DNA of 41,135 nt from a virus: the UHGV virus genome UHGV-0094207; one strand, written 5' to 3'. Within the stretch, counting starts at the first letter, position 1. The number at the start of each line of letters is the position of its first letter. The translations under genes and the position numbers were made by a program. The notes under the pieces are model-generated. The model saw only the letters and a program-made list of their open reading frames with translations, ran no database searches and had not been told where the DNA came from. Of this stretch, positions 50 through 17,952 are shown one piece after another.

Positions 50-1363
50 TTAACTTACTGATTTTAATAATCCTCCCGTACTGCTCTCGTGGCTATGGGG
101 CATCAATGGGGCAAAATCTGCCAGCTTCTGATTGAGCATTGCGATCTGCTCTGCGCTGCTGTCAGCCATCCATGCACCGTAAACATTGAACACCATCTGC
201 GCGCTCGCATGCCCCATCTGACTGGCAATAAAACTCGGGTTTGCACCAGCAGATAATGACCAGCACGCATAAGTATGTCGTGACTGGTACGCCTTTCTGT
301 GTCTGATCCCCGCGCGCTTTAGTGCCGCTTCCCAGGAGTCGCCTACTGAATCGACCCGGTAGATAAATCCGACCTGCTTACTGCGTCTGACCACATGCGG
401 GTTAAAGACGAATGTACACTCATGGTTCACCGAACGGCCATACTCACGTAACTGAACTTCAATGTGATGTTGCCTGCCCAGCCTTGTCATTTCAGCCTGA
501 TTTTTCAGGATACTGATTGCGGGCTGGATAAGATGCACCACTCGATCTGTGCTTGCCTCGGTTTTCGGTAGAGTGAACTCACCAAGTTTCGTATAATTAC
601 GCCTGACGGTAATTGTTCCCGCCTTCAGATCGATATCTTCCCAGGCCAGGGAGACCAGTTCCCCGTGACGCATTCCTGTGTACACTGCTAATGACCACAG
701 GTTTTTAGTCTGCTGATGCCGGCATGCATCTATCAGGCGAATAAATTCATCACGAGAAAGAGGATCTGGTTCTGCCCTGGCTTTTTTCAGAGGCTTAATT
801 CCCTCGAATGGGTTCACCTCTAAGTAACCGTGATCCGCAGCAAACTGAAACATTCCGGCCATTGTCGTCATGTAATAGTTCACAGTAACAACGCTTCGCC
901 CTTTTGCCGGGAATTTGTTTTTCGTCGGATTCTGGTAACCAGTTAGCAAATCTTTCCTGAGATACAGCAATTCCTCTTTGGTTACTGCTGACACCAGGCG
1001 ATTACCTCCGAGCCTCGGCACCATATTCCTTGCGACAGACTCATAGCGATTGAATGCGTTCGCGCAGATTTCCATCCGTTTCAGATCCAGCCACTTTTCT
1101 TCAAGTTCTTTTACTGTAATGTCTTTTTTACTTACACCAAAAGCCTTGAGGTTAGGGGAGTCAGGAAACTGGGTTGCATAATCAAAGGTTCCTGTGCGGA
1201 TGGCAAAACATACTGATGTCCGCAGTTCCCCGGCTATCTTCCTGTTCTTAGAGGTGTCAGGGACACCGAGACTTTCCCTGACACGCTTACCTTTAAAATT
1301 AAACCAGATGCGTAATGTGCCACCGTGGTTTTCGACGCCTGTTGGATATGTGACTTTATCCAT
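50..1363 (-). CDS. int: Tyrosine-type phage integrase with N-terminal arm-binding domain
   Basis: 437 aa. N-terminal 'YPTGVENHGGTLRIWFNFKGKRVRESLG' arm-type domain; C-terminal region with 'TGMRHGEL', 'HTYA' and R/H/Y residues typical of tyrosine recombinases; sits at the prophage edge next to xis. Confidence 0.9.
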   Translation of the reverse strand: MDKVTYPTGVENHGGTLRIWFNFKGKRVRESLGVPDTSKNRKIAGELRTSVCFAIRTGTFDYATQFPDSPNLKAFGVSKKDITVKELEEKWLDLKRMEICANAFNRYESVARNMVPRLGGNRLVSAVTKEELLYLRKDLLTGYQNPTKNKFPAKGRSVVTVNYYMTTMAGMFQFAADHGYLEVNPFEGIKPLKKARAEPDPLSRDEFIRLIDACRHQQTKNLWSLAVYTGMRHGELVSLAWEDIDLKAGTITVRRNYTKLGEFTLPKTEASTDRVVHLIQPAISILKNQAEMTRLGRQHHIEVQLREYGRSVNHECTFVFNPHVVRRSKQVGFIYRVDSVGDSWEAALKRAGIRHRKAYQSRHTYACWSLSAGANPSFIASQMGHASAQMVFNVYGAWMADSSAEQIAMLNQKLADFAPLMPHSHESSTGGLLKSVS

Positions 1364-6621: not shown

Positions 6622-6699
<78 letters not shown>

Positions 6700-7622: not shown

Positions 7623-8249
7623 TTAAAGCTCGTACTGAACGCCTTTGACAACTCCAATGATCAGGCAATTACCGTTTATTGAAATGTTTGGATAGCGTGG
7701 ATTTAAGGGAACCAAGAACTTTTGAGGCCCATCGATGACGAGTTTTTTTACAGTAGCCTCGTTTGTCCCATCAAGTCTGGCTACGACTATCTTTCCATTA
7801 AGTGGCTCTGCATCAGGGTCCACTATGACTGTTGCCCCTTCAGGGATTGTCGGAAGACCATTAGGGTTTGTCATCGAATCACCTTTGACCTCCAATGCAA
7901 ATGAGCTATCACCTATCCTGAGTGATGTTTCTACCCACTTATCTACTTCACTGAAAACTTCTGCTGCTTTACATTCTGTAAACTGTCCAGCCTGAACCCA
8001 AGATATCACCGGAATCCTTCGCATCTTGGTTATCAGATTTCCTTCGAATTCAGTGCCATAGAGTATGTAATCAATTGATGTGTTGAAATACTTTGCAAGT
8101 TTCGAAAGTGACTCACCGCCTGGCACATTAATGTCTTTTTCCCAATACCCAACCGCCACATCGCTAACACCACAGAACTTACCCAGTTCTTTCTGCGAAG
8201 TTTTGGTTACGCGCCTGAGAGCTTTGATGCGCTGACCGACAGTTTCCAT
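7623..8249 (-). CDS. cI: CI-like prophage repressor (HTH plus S24 LexA-like peptidase)
   Basis: 208 aa. N-terminal HTH 'QKELGKFCGVSDVAVGYWEK'; Ala-Gly cleavage site in 'WVQAGQF'; catalytic 'KGDSM' and 'VKKL'. Confidence 0.85.
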   Translation of the reverse strand: METVGQRIKALRRVTKTSQKELGKFCGVSDVAVGYWEKDINVPGGESLSKLAKYFNTSIDYILYGTEFEGNLITKMRRIPVISWVQAGQFTECKAAEVFSEVDKWVETSLRIGDSSFALEVKGDSMTNPNGLPTIPEGATVIVDPDAEPLNGKIVVARLDGTNEATVKKLVIDGPQKFLVPLNPRYPNISINGNCLIIGVVKGVQYEL

Positions 8250-13455: not shown

Positions 13456-14166
13456 GTGTATGGAGCGCAAAGAAGCATGAATCAACAAGACCTGAATTTT
13501 GTCAGAATAGAATTGCGCCGCGCGCTACCTGACCTCTCTGGGGGAACAAAAGGGCAGCTTGAGGCTTTCAGTGAACACCCACCAGCAGATAAAAATGCCA
13601 CCCCGCGCCGTGGAATTCATCTCGTCGAACTCGAAGGAGATAAGGGGCCACGCTTTGTTAACTCGCTTTCCGCGCCACTGTATGTGCTGGAAACACGCAG
13701 CCGCCGTAGGCCAATGCCGCCGATAAAAGATGCGGAATTTGAGTCAGCGCCGTGGCGTAGGGCAGTGTCCGCGCTTAGTGGATACCAGCAGGCCTGGTTG
13801 CGGTACTGTTACGGTTTTGACCTTAGCTATAAGCACCAGGTGATGATGTGTGAATACGTCTGGAAAACTTATCAGAAATGCCTGGGTGATAATTCCCTTC
13901 AGGAGCGCGTAGTAAAGAAACTGATTGGCCTGGTATGGCTGGCAGGGCAGGAAATTGCCGCAACCAGAAATAATGAAACCTATAAAGACTATGCTGGTGC
14001 AGCGTTGGCCCGCATGGTTAGCGTTGACCGTTCGACATGGTTGCGTGTCTATTCAGGGCACTGGGCTGGGTTAAAGGCCGCTTTTACCCAGCTTGATGAA
14101 TCTGCGCTGGCCATGGCTCTTGAATACTATGAGGAAGAAGACGCCCTCAAAGTGGCAGAAATGTGA
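13456..14166 (+). CDS. Late-gene antiterminator Q
   Basis: 236 aa in the canonical position before the lysis cassette; GTG start in the ORF track, ATG 'MNQQD' at 13477 is an alternative. Confidence 0.65.
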   Translation: MYGAQRSMNQQDLNFVRIELRRALPDLSGGTKGQLEAFSEHPPADKNATPRRGIHLVELEGDKGPRFVNSLSAPLYVLETRSRRRPMPPIKDAEFESAPWRRAVSALSGYQQAWLRYCYGFDLSYKHQVMMCEYVWKTYQKCLGDNSLQERVVKKLIGLVWLAGQEIAATRNNETYKDYAGAALARMVSVDRSTWLRVYSGHWAGLKAAFTQLDESALAMALEYYEEEDALKVAEM

Positions 14167-14260
14167 AGTAAATTTCACTATCTCCTTCAAACGCGCTTGC
14201 AAAATGCAACAAAATAAGCCATATTTGAAGCATATTTGATATGTTGCCAAAGTTCTATAA

Positions 14261-14287
14261 ACCCGCCTGTGAGCGGGTTTTTCTTTA
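14261..14287 (+). terminator. Rho-independent terminator (tR'-like)
   Basis: acccgcctgtgagcgggt hairpin followed by tttttcttt. Confidence 0.7.
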
Positions 14288-14367
14288 ACCTCTTTTGGCA
14301 CTCAATCTACGTCAAAATCAATATGTTATAATTCCGCTGGTCAAAACAAGCCACCGGAGGCAGTGCT

Positions 14368-14607
14368 ATGAAAATCACATCTGTACATTTCGAAATTCTG
14401 CGTCGAGCAGATGCACTTGGTCCACGTGAAACAATTCAATCTTCTGATCTTCCTCACATTCCAGCGAAAACGGTAGATTTTGCCATTTCAGATCTTGCTG
14501 ATTTGGGATTGGTAAATGCTGTTCAAAGTAAGTCTGATGAAGGTGGGTGGATAGCGATTGAAATCACGTCAAAGGGTGATCGCTATTTAAATGAACTAGA
14601 GGCTTAA
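14368..14607 (+). CDS. Hypothetical small protein (moron between Q and lysis genes)
   Basis: 79 aa; GGAGG before the ATG; visibly AT-richer than neighbours; bracketed by two terminators. Confidence 0.45.
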   Translation: MKITSVHFEILRRADALGPRETIQSSDLPHIPAKTVDFAISDLADLGLVNAVQSKSDEGGWIAIEITSKGDRYLNELEA

Positions 14608-14642
14608 TTCACTCTCTAGTAAAACGCGGGACATAATCTATA

Positions 14643-14671
14643 GGCTGCCATTTGGCGGCCTTTTCTATTTC
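14643..14671 (+). terminator. Rho-independent terminator
   Basis: ggctgcc-attt-ggcggcc hairpin (one G-U pair) followed by ttttctatttc. Confidence 0.5.
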
Positions 14672-14772
14672 AGGCTCTGGGAATCACCCTTACTTTCACC
14701 TTTGCATAAGAGCCCAGAAGCCTGATCCTCCTTTCATCACACAGCGCCATCCGAACTATCGGAGGTGAGGCT

Positions 14773-15051
14773 ATGACCAGAATGAGCACCATTTACAGCA
14801 GACTTTCATATGGAACAGGAACCACGCTGACCGGCTGCGGTGTATCAGCGAAGGCATACGCCGAAACAGCTAAAACAGCAAAAGAGGTGTCCTGGATGTT
14901 GGCCGACAGAATTGCAGGGTTAAGCCTGAGCGACTGGGCAATTATTGTCGGTATCGCATGCACCGTTATTACCTGTGCAGTGAACTGGTATTTCCGCTGG
15001 AAAGAACGGGAGGATCGTCGCAATGGCTATGCCACAAAAGCTGAAGAATAA
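14773..15051 (+). CDS. Holin with dual-start motif
   Basis: 92 aa. Starts 'MTRM' (two Met separated by a basic residue); hydrophobic 'WAIIVGIACTVITCAVNWYF' segment then a charged tail 'RWKEREDRR'. Confidence 0.65.
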   Translation: MTRMSTIYSRLSYGTGTTLTGCGVSAKAYAETAKTAKEVSWMLADRIAGLSLSDWAIIVGIACTVITCAVNWYFRWKEREDRRNGYATKAEE

Positions 15052-15571
15052 ACTGAGCGCAGCTGTCGTTGGGTTAATTCTTGCCGGGGCTTCCGCACCC
15101 GTAATTCTCGATCAGTTTCTGGATGAGAAAGAGGGTAACAGCACAACAGCGTACAAGGACGGCTCTGGTATATGGACCATTTGTCGTGGCGCAACGATGG
15201 TTGATGGTAAGCCAGTAGTTCAGGGCATGAAGCTGCCTGCTGAGAAATGCGCTCAGGTAAATGCTATTGAACGCGATAAAGCGCTGGCGTGGGTTGACCG
15301 AAATATCAAAGTACCACTGACGGAACCACAGAAAGCGGGTATCGCTTCTTTCTGCCCATATAACATCGGCCCCGGAAAATGTTTCCCGTCTACGTTCTAT
15401 AAGCGAATTAATGCTGGCGACCGTAAAGGAGCCTGTGAAGCGATCCGCTGGTGGATAAAAGACGGTGGCCGCGATTGTCGCCTGACCAAAGGGCAGAAGA
15501 ATGGTTGTTATGGGCAGGTAGAAAGGCGAGACCAGGAAAGCGCGCTGGCTTGCTGGGGGATAGACCAGTGA
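15023..15571 (+). CDS. SAR endolysin (T4-lysozyme-like)
   Basis: 182 aa. N-terminal signal-anchor-like 'LSAAVVGLILAGASAPVIL'; catalytic spacing 'EGNSTTAYKDGSGIWT'. Confidence 0.8.
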   Translation: MAMPQKLKNKLSAAVVGLILAGASAPVILDQFLDEKEGNSTTAYKDGSGIWTICRGATMVDGKPVVQGMKLPAEKCAQVNAIERDKALAWVDRNIKVPLTEPQKAGIASFCPYNIGPGKCFPSTFYKRINAGDRKGACEAIRWWIKDGGRDCRLTKGQKNGCYGQVERRDQESALACWGIDQ

Positions 15572-16092: not shown

Positions 16093-16128
16093 AAATAGGG
16101 CCACTTAAAGGTAGCCCAAACGATTCGA

Positions 16129-16386
16129 TTAAGATTTAGAAAGTAGGGCTACAACTCTTTTATGTAACTCTTCTGCATAACCTTCATTTACTGGGTTTTC
16201 AAACTCCACAGGCGGCGCTGATTTAAAAGCTTTATCGTAGCTATCGCCAAGCATACCAGGCTGTTTGGCAAGGGAGTTCCAAGCTGTGGATATCGTGGTA
16301 ATAGCAATTCTTGCTGCATGCTGATCTAAAAGTAGCTCTTCAATAGTTTTTTCGAGTTCATCAATGCGTTTCTGCAGATCTGTCAT
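16129..16386 (-). CDS. Hypothetical small coiled-coil protein, antisense to the late operon
   Basis: 85 aa on the opposite strand between Rz and the glycosyltransferase gene; visibly AT-rich. Confidence 0.45.
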   Translation of the reverse strand: MTDLQKRIDELEKTIEELLLDQHAARIAITTISTAWNSLAKQPGMLGDSYDKAFKSAPPVEFENPVNEGYAEELHKRVVALLSKS

Positions 16387-16494
16387 GAAATTACCTCTAA
16401 AGGGTTGTGTAAATGAGCTGCGATTATATCATTTTGGTGTCAGCAAAAGTGATGTCCAGATAGGAGTCCTGAACCATTTTATTTTGGAGAAATT

Positions 16495-17952
16495 ATGCAG
16501 GTCACTATCGATGGTGTTCCATACGCGCCTGTCTGCAATTCGGTGTCACGCATAGGAATAGCAATCACAACGCATAATCGCCCTGACGTATTGAAGCGGA
16601 CACTGGCGCAGCATCATCAATTTTTACCGTCCGGCGCGCTCGTGGTTGTCATAGATGATGGTTCAAAACCTGCCGCAGTCGTTCCCGACGGCGTGCAGCT
16701 GCTTCGCAATGAAACATCCCTCGGCATTGTGGCCTCGAAAAACCGAAGCCTCGAAGCGCTGGTGGACGCCGGATGTGAGCATCTCTTCCTGTGGGATGAT
16801 GACGCATGGCCGGTTGCCGATAACTGGCACCTGCCTTACATCGAATCACCTGAGTCACACCTGGCTTACCAGTTTCTCGATCTGGCTGGTCCACGAAAGA
16901 TAAACGATATGACCGTCCTGCACCAGGATGATAAGCATATCGCTTACACCGGGCAGCGCGGTGTGATGCTGTACTACCACCGCAGCGCCATTGAGAAGGT
17001 TGGCGGATTCGATCCGGTATACGGTCGAGGCATGTATGAGCATCCTGATTTGGCGCTTCGGATTTATAACGCTGGCTTAACGTCCTGGGCGTTTGCTGAT
17101 GTGGTTGGCTCTGAAAAGCTGATTCACTCAATGGATGAATACGAAGAGGGCGCGCGCAGCATACCGAGGCCTGAACGTGAAGCGCTCTATAAAAAGAACG
17201 CTGTAATTTACGGGCAGCGCCGGGATTCAGGATATACAGGCTATGCCGAATATCGATCTCAGCGCGACGTGGTAATCACAACGTTGCTTACCAGCCAGCC
17301 AGACCCGCAGCGCGGTACGAAAATGGCGGCCGTATCAGACATGCTGACCAGGTGGGCTGCCTCGCTTCGGAATTGTGGCCGTATTGCGCTGGTGGATGAG
17401 CTGCAGACGGCATCGGCAGACGTTGAGTTGTATCGCGTCCCTGACGTGAAGATGAATGTCTACTTCCGGCGCTGGCTGCATATCTGGCAGCACCTGCGCG
17501 ATCACCCTGAATACCGGTTCGTCTGGTGTACCGATGGTACCGATGTCGAAATGCTCCGCGCACCGTGGGAAGAAATGCAGCCCGGGAATGTTTACGTCGG
17601 TTCTGAACCGAAGATCTACGCCGACACCTGGGCGAAACAGAATCATCCTGAGCGTATCTATCAGGAATTCATTGAAGCGCACCGCGGCGATGTGATGCTT
17701 AATGCTGGTCTTCTGGGAGGCACCCGCGCTGATGTGATGGCGTTCGCTCATGGCATCATCCGTCTTTACTACCGGATCGAGAGTTATCGTTTCTGGAAGA
17801 AAGAACAGGCTGGCGCAGCGGTGGGTGACATGCTGGCGTTCGGTATCGTTGCGCAGTCATTCGCTGACAGGTTGGTCACCGGCCCTCTGGTACATACCGT
17901 TTTCAAAACTGATGGTATCGGTAAGGAGGCAGCATGGTGGAAACACAAGTGA
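16495..17952 (+). CDS. Two-domain glycosyltransferase (N-terminal GT2/GT-A domain plus a second GT-A-like C-terminal domain)
   Basis: 485 aa. N-terminal 'GIAITTHNRPDVLKRTL...VVVIDDGS...LWDDDAWP...GGFDPVYGRGMYEHPDLALR' are GT2 hallmarks; C-terminal half has 'RFVWCTDGTDVEM'. Confidence 0.6.
   Translation: MQVTIDGVPYAPVCNSVSRIGIAITTHNRPDVLKRTLAQHHQFLPSGALVVVIDDGSKPAAVVPDGVQLLRNETSLGIVASKNRSLEALVDAGCEHLFLWDDDAWPVADNWHLPYIESPESHLAYQFLDLAGPRKINDMTVLHQDDKHIAYTGQRGVMLYYHRSAIEKVGGFDPVYGRGMYEHPDLALRIYNAGLTSWAFADVVGSEKLIHSMDEYEEGARSIPRPEREALYKKNAVIYGQRRDSGYTGYAEYRSQRDVVITTLLTSQPDPQRGTKMAAVSDMLTRWAASLRNCGRIALVDELQTASADVELYRVPDVKMNVYFRRWLHIWQHLRDHPEYRFVWCTDGTDVEMLRAPWEEMQPGNVYVGSEPKIYADTWAKQNHPERIYQEFIEAHRGDVMLNAGLLGGTRADVMAFAHGIIRLYYRIESYRFWKKEQAGAAVGDMLAFGIVAQSFADRLVTGPLVHTVFKTDGIGKEAAWWKHK

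Follow-up and report, generated by a model that had tools for sequence, protein, structure and literature searches.

A small gene for a predicted winged helix-turn-helix protein, with a candidate promoter of its own, in the Q-to-lysis interval of a lambdoid prophage

Anatomy of the interval between Q and the lysis genes

The 41,135-nt stretch of DNA analyzed in this study, UHGV-0094207 (hereafter the window), was recognized by its gene content as a lambdoid prophage, which encodes an integrase, a CI-type repressor, an Ant protein, a DUF968 protein, the antiterminator Q, lysis genes and a terminase. Between Q and the lysis cassette lies a 79-aa open reading frame (ORF), and the features around it are collected in Table 1. 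The original prediction had described a small gene with a strong ribosome-binding site and a lower GC content, located directly downstream of Q in the slot where Stx phages carry stx, and each of these points was borne out. The ATG is preceded at 7 nt by GGAGG, and a Shine-Dalgarno sequence at equivalent spacing was present in all subfamilies of the ORF family. The GC content was 0.404 for the ORF and 0.424 for the module as a whole compared with a window mean of 0.512, and the GC3 of the ORF was 0.241 compared with 0.515 for Q and 0.505 for the lysozyme gene. Moreover, the Pfam assignments of Q, holin and lysozyme confirmed that the gene occupies the Q-to-lysis interval on the late strand.

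Table 1. Positions of the genes and sequence elements discussed in the text, counted from the first nucleotide of the window
Feature	Position	Strand	Remarks
Integrase	50-1363	-	
tRNA-Arg gene	6622-6698	-	Anticodon TCT; inside the prophage early region; sole Rfam match of the window at gathering thresholds (6625-6698)
CI-type repressor	7623-8249	-	
Q antiterminator gene	13477-14166	+	PF06323 type (Pfam E 2.1e-36; phrog_304 E 6e-72)
Putative late promoter PR'	14197-14239	+	TTGCAA 14197-14202, 17-nt spacer, CATATT 14220-14225
Terminator 1, tR' equivalent	14259-14286	+	AAACCCGC-CTGTGA-GCGGGTTT followed by a T run
Conserved block, candidate promoter	14302-14332	+	TCAATCTACGTCAAAATCAATATGTTATAAT; 31 nt, between terminator 1 and the Shine-Dalgarno sequence
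Extended -10	14324-14332	+	TGTTATAAT; perfect, 3' end of the 31-nt block
Shine-Dalgarno sequence	14356-14360	+	GGAGG
79-aa ORF	14368-14607	+	ATG start; predicted acidic mini winged helix-turn-helix; PHROG 32916; distantly DUF2513-like at most
Terminator 2	14642-14671	+	AGGCTGCC-ATTT-GGCGGCCT followed by TTTCTATTTC
Lysis-cassette leader	14672-14772	+	Conserved ahead of unrelated holins; putative right-hand linker of the slot
Holin	14773-15051	+	PF16080, E 1.7e-11
Lysozyme	15023-15571	+	PF00959, E 4.7e-23

Rho-independent terminators had been predicted on both sides of the ORF, and the top two sites of the terminator scan were indeed found there, both folding below shuffled sequences. Terminator 1 consists of an 8-pair stem (14259-14280) with a T-rich tail (-12.0 kcal/mol, z -3.35 against shuffles), and terminator 2 of a stem of 8 pairs, 6 of them G-C (14642-14661; -14.9 kcal/mol, z -4.64). 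The stems of both were approximately invariant within each type of locus and replaced wholesale between types, so covariation counts would be uninformative for either of them.

The late promoter of the window was assigned by analogy with lambda PR'. The candidate matched the promoter consensus at 8 of 12 positions, which was below the threshold of the promoter scan, and its region was kept together with the Q gene in E. coli prophages. A -10-like sequence, CATATTTGA, at 14231-14239 forms a repeat 11 nt apart within 14220-14239, just 5' of terminator 1, and by the same analogy the second copy could act as a sigma-dependent pause element for the PF06323-type Q. In loci with a lambda-type Q, PR' was clear by motif, and the sequences TATATTTGACATTAACGATGGG, TAAGATTTTCTCAACGATGGG and TAGTATTTGTCTAACGATGGG just 5' of terminator 1 mirror lambda PR' (TAAATTTGACTCAACGATGGG), which marks terminator 1 as the tR' equivalent of the late leader, approximately 35-55 nt from the presumed start. 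The arrangement resembles the lambda PR'-tR' leader (the 6S RNA region) in that terminator 1 follows a late promoter directly after Q and in that lambda-type loci carry the lambda -10/AACGATGGG pause motif. It differs from lambda, where the terminator lies at +194 and where there is no comparable gene between tR' and S.

These observations changed one part of the original prediction. Two terminators flank the gene, but they do not appear to be a symmetrical bracket belonging to it, because terminator 1 is the late-leader terminator, which is common to prophages with other cargo and to lambda-type Q loci, and because terminator 2 probably insulates the lysis genes and also flanks other cargo in E. 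coli KSC64.

No relative of 14167-14772 was found with megablast among 50,697 phage records, and no known RNA family matched this interval at Rfam gathering thresholds; the relaxed Rfam matches at 14217-14289 were terminator-driven and far below threshold. For P0018, no relatives were found in IMG/VR.

A gene family in one slot behind three families of Q

A word-indexed search returned 14 clusters, named only as hypothetical proteins of Citrobacter, and an exhaustive profile search of 1.84 billion representatives returned only 6 proteins at E <= 0.001, which indicated that the family is small. With scans of IMG/VR and BLAST searches of annotated collections, the family grew to four subfamilies, which occur in prophages of Citrobacter, E. 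coli and Klebsiella, as follows: the window type (79-80 aa; Citrobacter and one E. coli genome); the E. coli type, represented by locus L030 (89 aa, 58% identical; 41 of 5,426 complete genomes, including APEC O78); the L043 type (37% identical); and the Klebsiella-phage type (39-44% identical; e.g. ST405-OXA48phi1.2). In total, 71 loci were compared. Many of them are near-identical prophages, and they correspond to approximately 14 independent combinations of Q, subfamily and holin.

A lack of conservation in related phages had been named as the finding that would speak against the gene. Instead, the frame was intact in all 71 loci with lengths of 79, 80 or 89 aa, down to a protein identity of 37%. 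Among the 19 distinct coding sequences of the first 43 loci, the indels were in-frame, and the NG86 dN/dS had a median of 0.31 (147 pairs with dS > 0.05) and fell to 0.12-0.22 at the deepest usable divergence. The ORF is thus a real gene under purifying selection. The opposite reading, a chance reading frame in an untranslated late leader, might be raised because the ORF is short, has no Pfam match above threshold and has been annotated only as hypothetical; it is, however, extremely improbable and already effectively refuted by the intact frame and in-frame indels, by the dN/dS values, by the conserved Shine-Dalgarno sequence and by a confidently predicted fold. The homologues are also mosaic: N-terminal variants (MKITP..F.. 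or MKLTS..I..) and wing variants (KSD-EGGWIAIE or TSDCDDRWIVNR) occur in different recombined combinations (L021 and L023 versus the window, L018 and L005).

In all 71 loci the gene has the same strand as Q, and in all but one of them it starts 149-214 nt after Q, the exception being L092 with a distance of 588 nt. Such a constant arrangement is more than would be expected by chance, but its weight is reduced by the small number of independent combinations. Three Q families precede the gene, namely PF06323 (the window), PF03589 (lambda type, with a match to PDB 7UBM at E 2e-43) and DUF1133/PF06530 (Klebsiella, weakly Q21-like); a PDB sequence search returned no solved homologue for the PF06323-type Q of the window. 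Downstream of the gene, at least five holin types were found, with lysozyme, GH19 or CHAP endolysins. Dependence of the gene on one Q type or on one lysis cassette was therefore rejected. In addition, the gene was intact in prophages with a truncated or split Q (APEC O78, L037 and L040), and related loci had no conserved partner gene nearby. No tRNA genes lie in the slot, so tRNA cargo was also rejected.

The contents of the slot vary in relatives with the same ends. When the window was compared with 48 other E. coli genomes, homology covered only Q, PR' and terminator 1 (query positions 1-123) and ended right after the T run; the ORF was present in 1 of the 49 E. coli genomes with the tR' of the window. 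In Nissle 1917 (L002, 4110-7160), the same Q, PR' and tR' are followed by a small ORF, an SDH-family Clp-fold serine protease and a DNA methyltransferase. In KSC64 (L095, 2600-3530), they are followed by a 261-aa hypothetical gene, which is flanked by the same terminator 1 and by the terminator 2 sequence AAGGCTGCC-N4-GGCGGCCTTTT. Conversely, the loci with a lambda-type Q share with the window the stretch from the terminator 1 stem through terminator 2 and the lysis leader, but not Q and PR'. Since both cargo and Q are swapped around shared ends, the two terminators and the lysis leader behave as conserved linkers of a cargo slot. A truly empty slot was not found among the relatives. It is mildly unusual that, behind three unrelated families of Q, this gene family is strictly confined to the first position of the late operon, and this positional conservation could reflect descent together with recombination at the conserved linkers rather than function.

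The terminator 2 sequence was found in 38 further loci, and the Klebsiella and L043 types have different hairpins at its position. A downstream hairpin followed by a T run was read in 58 of the 71 loci (53 under a strict automatic rule), and the L030 type has a hairpin 3' of the gene without a T run. At the position of terminator 1, the L030 type has a non-homologous terminator. Between terminator 2 and the holin lies a leader of approximately 100 nt, CAGGCTC.GGGAATCA...GCCTGATCC.CTTTCATCACACAGCGCCATCCGAA..ATCGGAGGTGAG, which is kept in the window and in L001, L005, L018, L026, L066 and L002, and of which a Klebsiella phage and Nissle 1917 retain a part. The leader may serve as a linker for recombination or may regulate the lysis genes. 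In the loci with the 89-aa variant, approximately 500 nt devoid of annotated genes separate the hairpin from the gene of a 164-aa protein, which has no match in Pfam and precedes the holin (L030, 5271-6274; APEC O78, L068, 3985-4987). The 89-aa variant gene and the 164-aa gene may form an operon.

The conserved promoter block and the predicted protein

The original prediction did not include a conserved extended -10, which may constitute the gene's own promoter. In each of the 71 loci, the pattern TGnTAnAAT lies 3' of the first terminator and 29-38 nt upstream of the ATG. In the window it forms the end of a 31-nt block with the consensus TCAATCTAC[G/A/T]TCAAAATCAAT[A/G]TGTTA[T/C]AAT. Between the window and the L030 type, 29 of the 31 positions of this block are identical at a dS of 1.36 and a protein identity of 58%, and the adjacent terminator and 5' leader are unrelated. 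The block is thus conserved far above the synonymous rate, which argues for a cis-regulatory element belonging to the 79-aa gene. Furthermore, all 22 IMG/VR contigs that contained the block also contained the ORF, and the pattern of the block had 0 matches in GTDB species-representative genomes. The Klebsiella and L043 types carry TGGTAAAAT and TGTTAAAAT at the equivalent place. The block occurs once in the window, and the extended -10 pattern TGNTATAAT occurs twice in 41 kb compared with 0.76 sites expected.

These data indicate from sequence that the block is probably the promoter of the gene, with the 21 nt upstream of the -10 (14302-14322, over the -35/spacer region) perhaps serving as an operator. 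No recognizable -35 was present for the TGTTATAAT promoter, and a consensus promoter scan made no call at the block. Extended -10 elements of sigma-70 promoters do without a -35. Because every member of the family has the extended -10 downstream of terminator 1, expression of the gene independently of Q would be expected as well. Two other assignments for the block were rejected: a minus-strand promoter, for which the -10 was poor, and a Q-binding element, since the block travels with the ORF and not with Q. An IHF consensus match (AATCAATATGTTA, 14316-14328) overlaps the block and is retained in both block variants; the window contains 4 such sites compared with 1.7 expected, which is statistically weak, and the match is absent from the Klebsiella type.

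The AlphaFold2 model of the 79-aa protein, made from a 15-sequence alignment, reached a pLDDT of 92.1 and a pTM of 0.82 and contained helix 5-15, a short turn helix, helix 33-45, a beta hairpin (49-53/61-66) and helix 68-78. According to the model, the protein is a winged helix-turn-helix with one extra C-terminal helix. The best fold matches were overwhelmingly DNA-binding regulators; the small stand-alone winged helices 2obp, 3b73, 2qvo, 2hgc and TubR came next, and the matches also included the Rio2 N-domain and the T4 MotA activation domain, which do not bind DNA. Matches to viral structures were weak and generic.

By sequence, the protein matched phrog_32916 over its full length (E 9.7e-27; residues 1-78 against positions 1-79 of 89 of the profile). 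The DUF2513 model (PF10711) gave 17.7 bits with the window protein and 21.8 bits with the E. coli 89-aa variant compared with a gathering score of 29.6, and the exhaustive search also returned a DUF2513-like protein of 119 aa. DUF2513 is thus at most a distant relative, from whose proteins the 79-aa protein differs in being shorter, and neither PHROG 32916 nor DUF2513 has an assigned function. The literature search returned one irrelevant paper on DUF2513 and, among papers on morons, Q and holins, nothing on the 79-aa family; NCBIfam contained nothing significant.

The predicted winged helix-turn-helix lobe resembles the DNA-binding lobe of MarR regulators (PDB 3bpx, 5h3r and ST1710, 2eb7), with an ITSKG turn like that of MarR and the core pattern of helix 3 preserved. 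Unlike MarR proteins, which have about 140 aa, it has half that size, lacks the N- and C-terminal dimerization helices and the basic wing motif, and is acidic. A phmmer search of PDB sequences returned only MarR chains at E 0.2 or worse, and the best alignment covered only residues 39-105 of the 146-aa ST1710. Because the dimerization helices are lacking and the Pfam MarR models (PF01047/PF12802) gave no match at E up to 0.1, the protein is a MarR-like lobe and not a member of the MarR family.

The window copy has a pI of 4.77 and a net charge of -5.3, and the family as a whole ranges from acidic to neutral (pI 4.5-6.9). Residues D37, S41, D42 and D45, which are exposed on the presumed recognition helix, are acidic or polar, as is the wing SKSDEGG; this would be unusual in a protein that recognizes a specific DNA sequence. 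The original prediction of a small, helical and possibly DNA-binding domain was therefore only partly supported: a small winged helix-turn-helix is predicted with confidence, and the fold makes DNA binding plausible, although not assured for so acidic a protein. The two subfamilies with the shared block agree at 12 of the 15 positions of the presumed recognition helix, and both helix and block differ in the other two subfamilies. This co-variation points to possible autoregulation, and it amounts to only about one evolutionary event.

Expression and possible role of the gene

Taken together, the gene is probably a moron with two modes of expression, one in the lysogen from a promoter of its own and one in lytic growth through Q read-through, and its product would be a small regulator, perhaps an autoregulatory one. 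In the lysogen, host sigma-70 polymerase would start at the TGTTATAAT promoter, approximately 7 nt after 14332, and transcription of the 79-aa gene would end at terminator 2, so that holin and lysozyme are kept silent. After induction, Q-modified polymerase from PR' would read through terminator 1, the gene and terminator 2, which would make the 79-aa gene also the first late gene to be expressed. The product would be a minimal winged helix-turn-helix regulator (a MarR-type lobe and one C-terminal helix), the most likely DNA target of which would be the conserved 21 nt over the -35/spacer of its own promoter. Against a regulator stands the observation that the block occurs only once in the phage, so that an autoregulator with no other target has no evident purpose.

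The moron concept reportedly derives from HK97/HK022 and the studies of Juhala, Hendrix and colleagues. Like lambdoid morons, the locus is a promoter-gene-terminator unit with a base composition unlike that of its neighbors, located between conserved modules, present in some phages and absent from others that are otherwise syntenic. It has at sequence level an extended -10 as candidate promoter, the terminator 2 hairpin and T run directly downstream of the gene, a foreign GC3 and, among syntenic relatives, replacement by other cargo in Nissle 1917 and KSC64. It differs from morons in general, which are scattered, in that the 79-aa family is confined to one slot. At the same time, its position after Q, the putative PR' and tR' and before the lysis genes on the same strand is that of Q-dependent late cargo. 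The classic cargo of this slot is stx, which is strongly switched on at induction, and stx1 has its own Fur-regulated promoter in addition to read-through from PR' with Q. By analogy, the same dual transcription logic would be expected for the 79-aa gene, which shares with stx operons the slot between Q/PR'/tR' and holin and the late strand. It differs in that its product is a predicted winged helix and not a toxin, that no tRNA genes accompany it and that nothing at the locus suggests virulence; toxin or virulence cargo was rejected for want of support. The candidate Q-dependent cargo gene of the original prediction thus kept its slot and strand, and expression that depends purely on Q became unlikely, given the extended -10 in every family member.

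Strict Q dependence, in which the gene would be transcribed from PR' only and the TGTTATAAT block would be, for example, an RNA or pause element of the late leader, agrees with the location of the gene, which in all 71 loci follows Q/PR'/tR' on the late strand, and with the missing -35 and scan call. It is nevertheless improbable, because four subfamilies with surrounding sequences that are no longer recognizably similar keep a perfect extended -10 at a constant distance from the ATG, because a second terminator right after the gene is what would be expected if a promoter had to be insulated from the lysis genes, and because the gene is intact where Q is truncated or split. A serious rival, although clearly less probable than the moron with a regulator as its product, keeps the expression architecture and lets the acidic winged helix bind a protein instead of DNA, such as a host factor, a defense component or RNA polymerase/sigma, with the block as a site for a host factor. 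The overwhelmingly DNA-binding fold matches and the retained ITSKG turn and helix-3 core pattern speak for DNA, and many MarR proteins are mildly acidic themselves. No conserved partner gene lies nearby, and a search of PADLOC-DB returned no defense-system match below E 0.01 (the best, at E 0.018, being to generic winged-helix parts of CARF/Csa3 models). As for a host-factor site, the IHF match is weak, and the Klebsiella type lacks it.

Located between tR' and the lysis genes, the block is part of a module that always brings a second hairpin before these genes, and the family is confined to a single slot, with three unrelated Q families on one side and many lysis cassettes on the other. These facts would suit a protein that binds the block 15-40 nt after tR' and, together with terminator 2, stops leaking polymerase, which Q-modified polymerase would override; the lysogen would be shielded from leakage of holin and endolysin, or the timing of lysis would be tuned. 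This proposal is improbable, to about the same degree as strict Q dependence. Related phages with the same Q manage without the gene and lambda has none such, descent and recombination at the linkers would suffice to explain the slot rule, DNA binding is a prediction from the fold, and the second hairpin of the L030 type lacks a T run. In a broader form, the family would be a dedicated late-leader component that gates non-antiterminated polymerase with respect to leakage, lysis timing or superinfecting relatives; such a role, for which the chances are also low, would explain the restriction to one slot behind three unrelated Q families. The moron with its own promoter and Q read-through is preferred here, as an accessory gene that is dispensable for Q function.

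The locus is a compact and well-delimited Q-to-lysis cargo slot with two conserved terminators as boundaries, in which a small gene of predicted winged-helix type persisted in Citrobacter, E. coli and Klebsiella while Q type and lysis cassette were exchanged. Should its protein regulate host genes or late/lysis transcription, the gene would encode a new small prophage regulator; otherwise, it would be one more uncharacterized moron. In either case, the locus provides a clean test case for an insulated promoter placed upstream of lysis genes.

Other cargo-like features were observed in the window. A second moron-like unit on the minus strand (16098-16431; GC 0.37-0.43) comprises a coiled-coil-like ORF of 85 aa (16129-16386; phrog_16546, E 8e-18), a perfect extended -10 (TGATATAAT, 16431-16423) and a terminator-like hairpin (16117-16098). 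Between the lysis region and the terminase, a 485-aa ORF on the plus strand (16495-17952) has an N-terminal match to glycosyltransferase family 2 that is below threshold (E 6e-4; 20.3 bits compared with a cut-off of 23.3), and this ORF may be further cargo.
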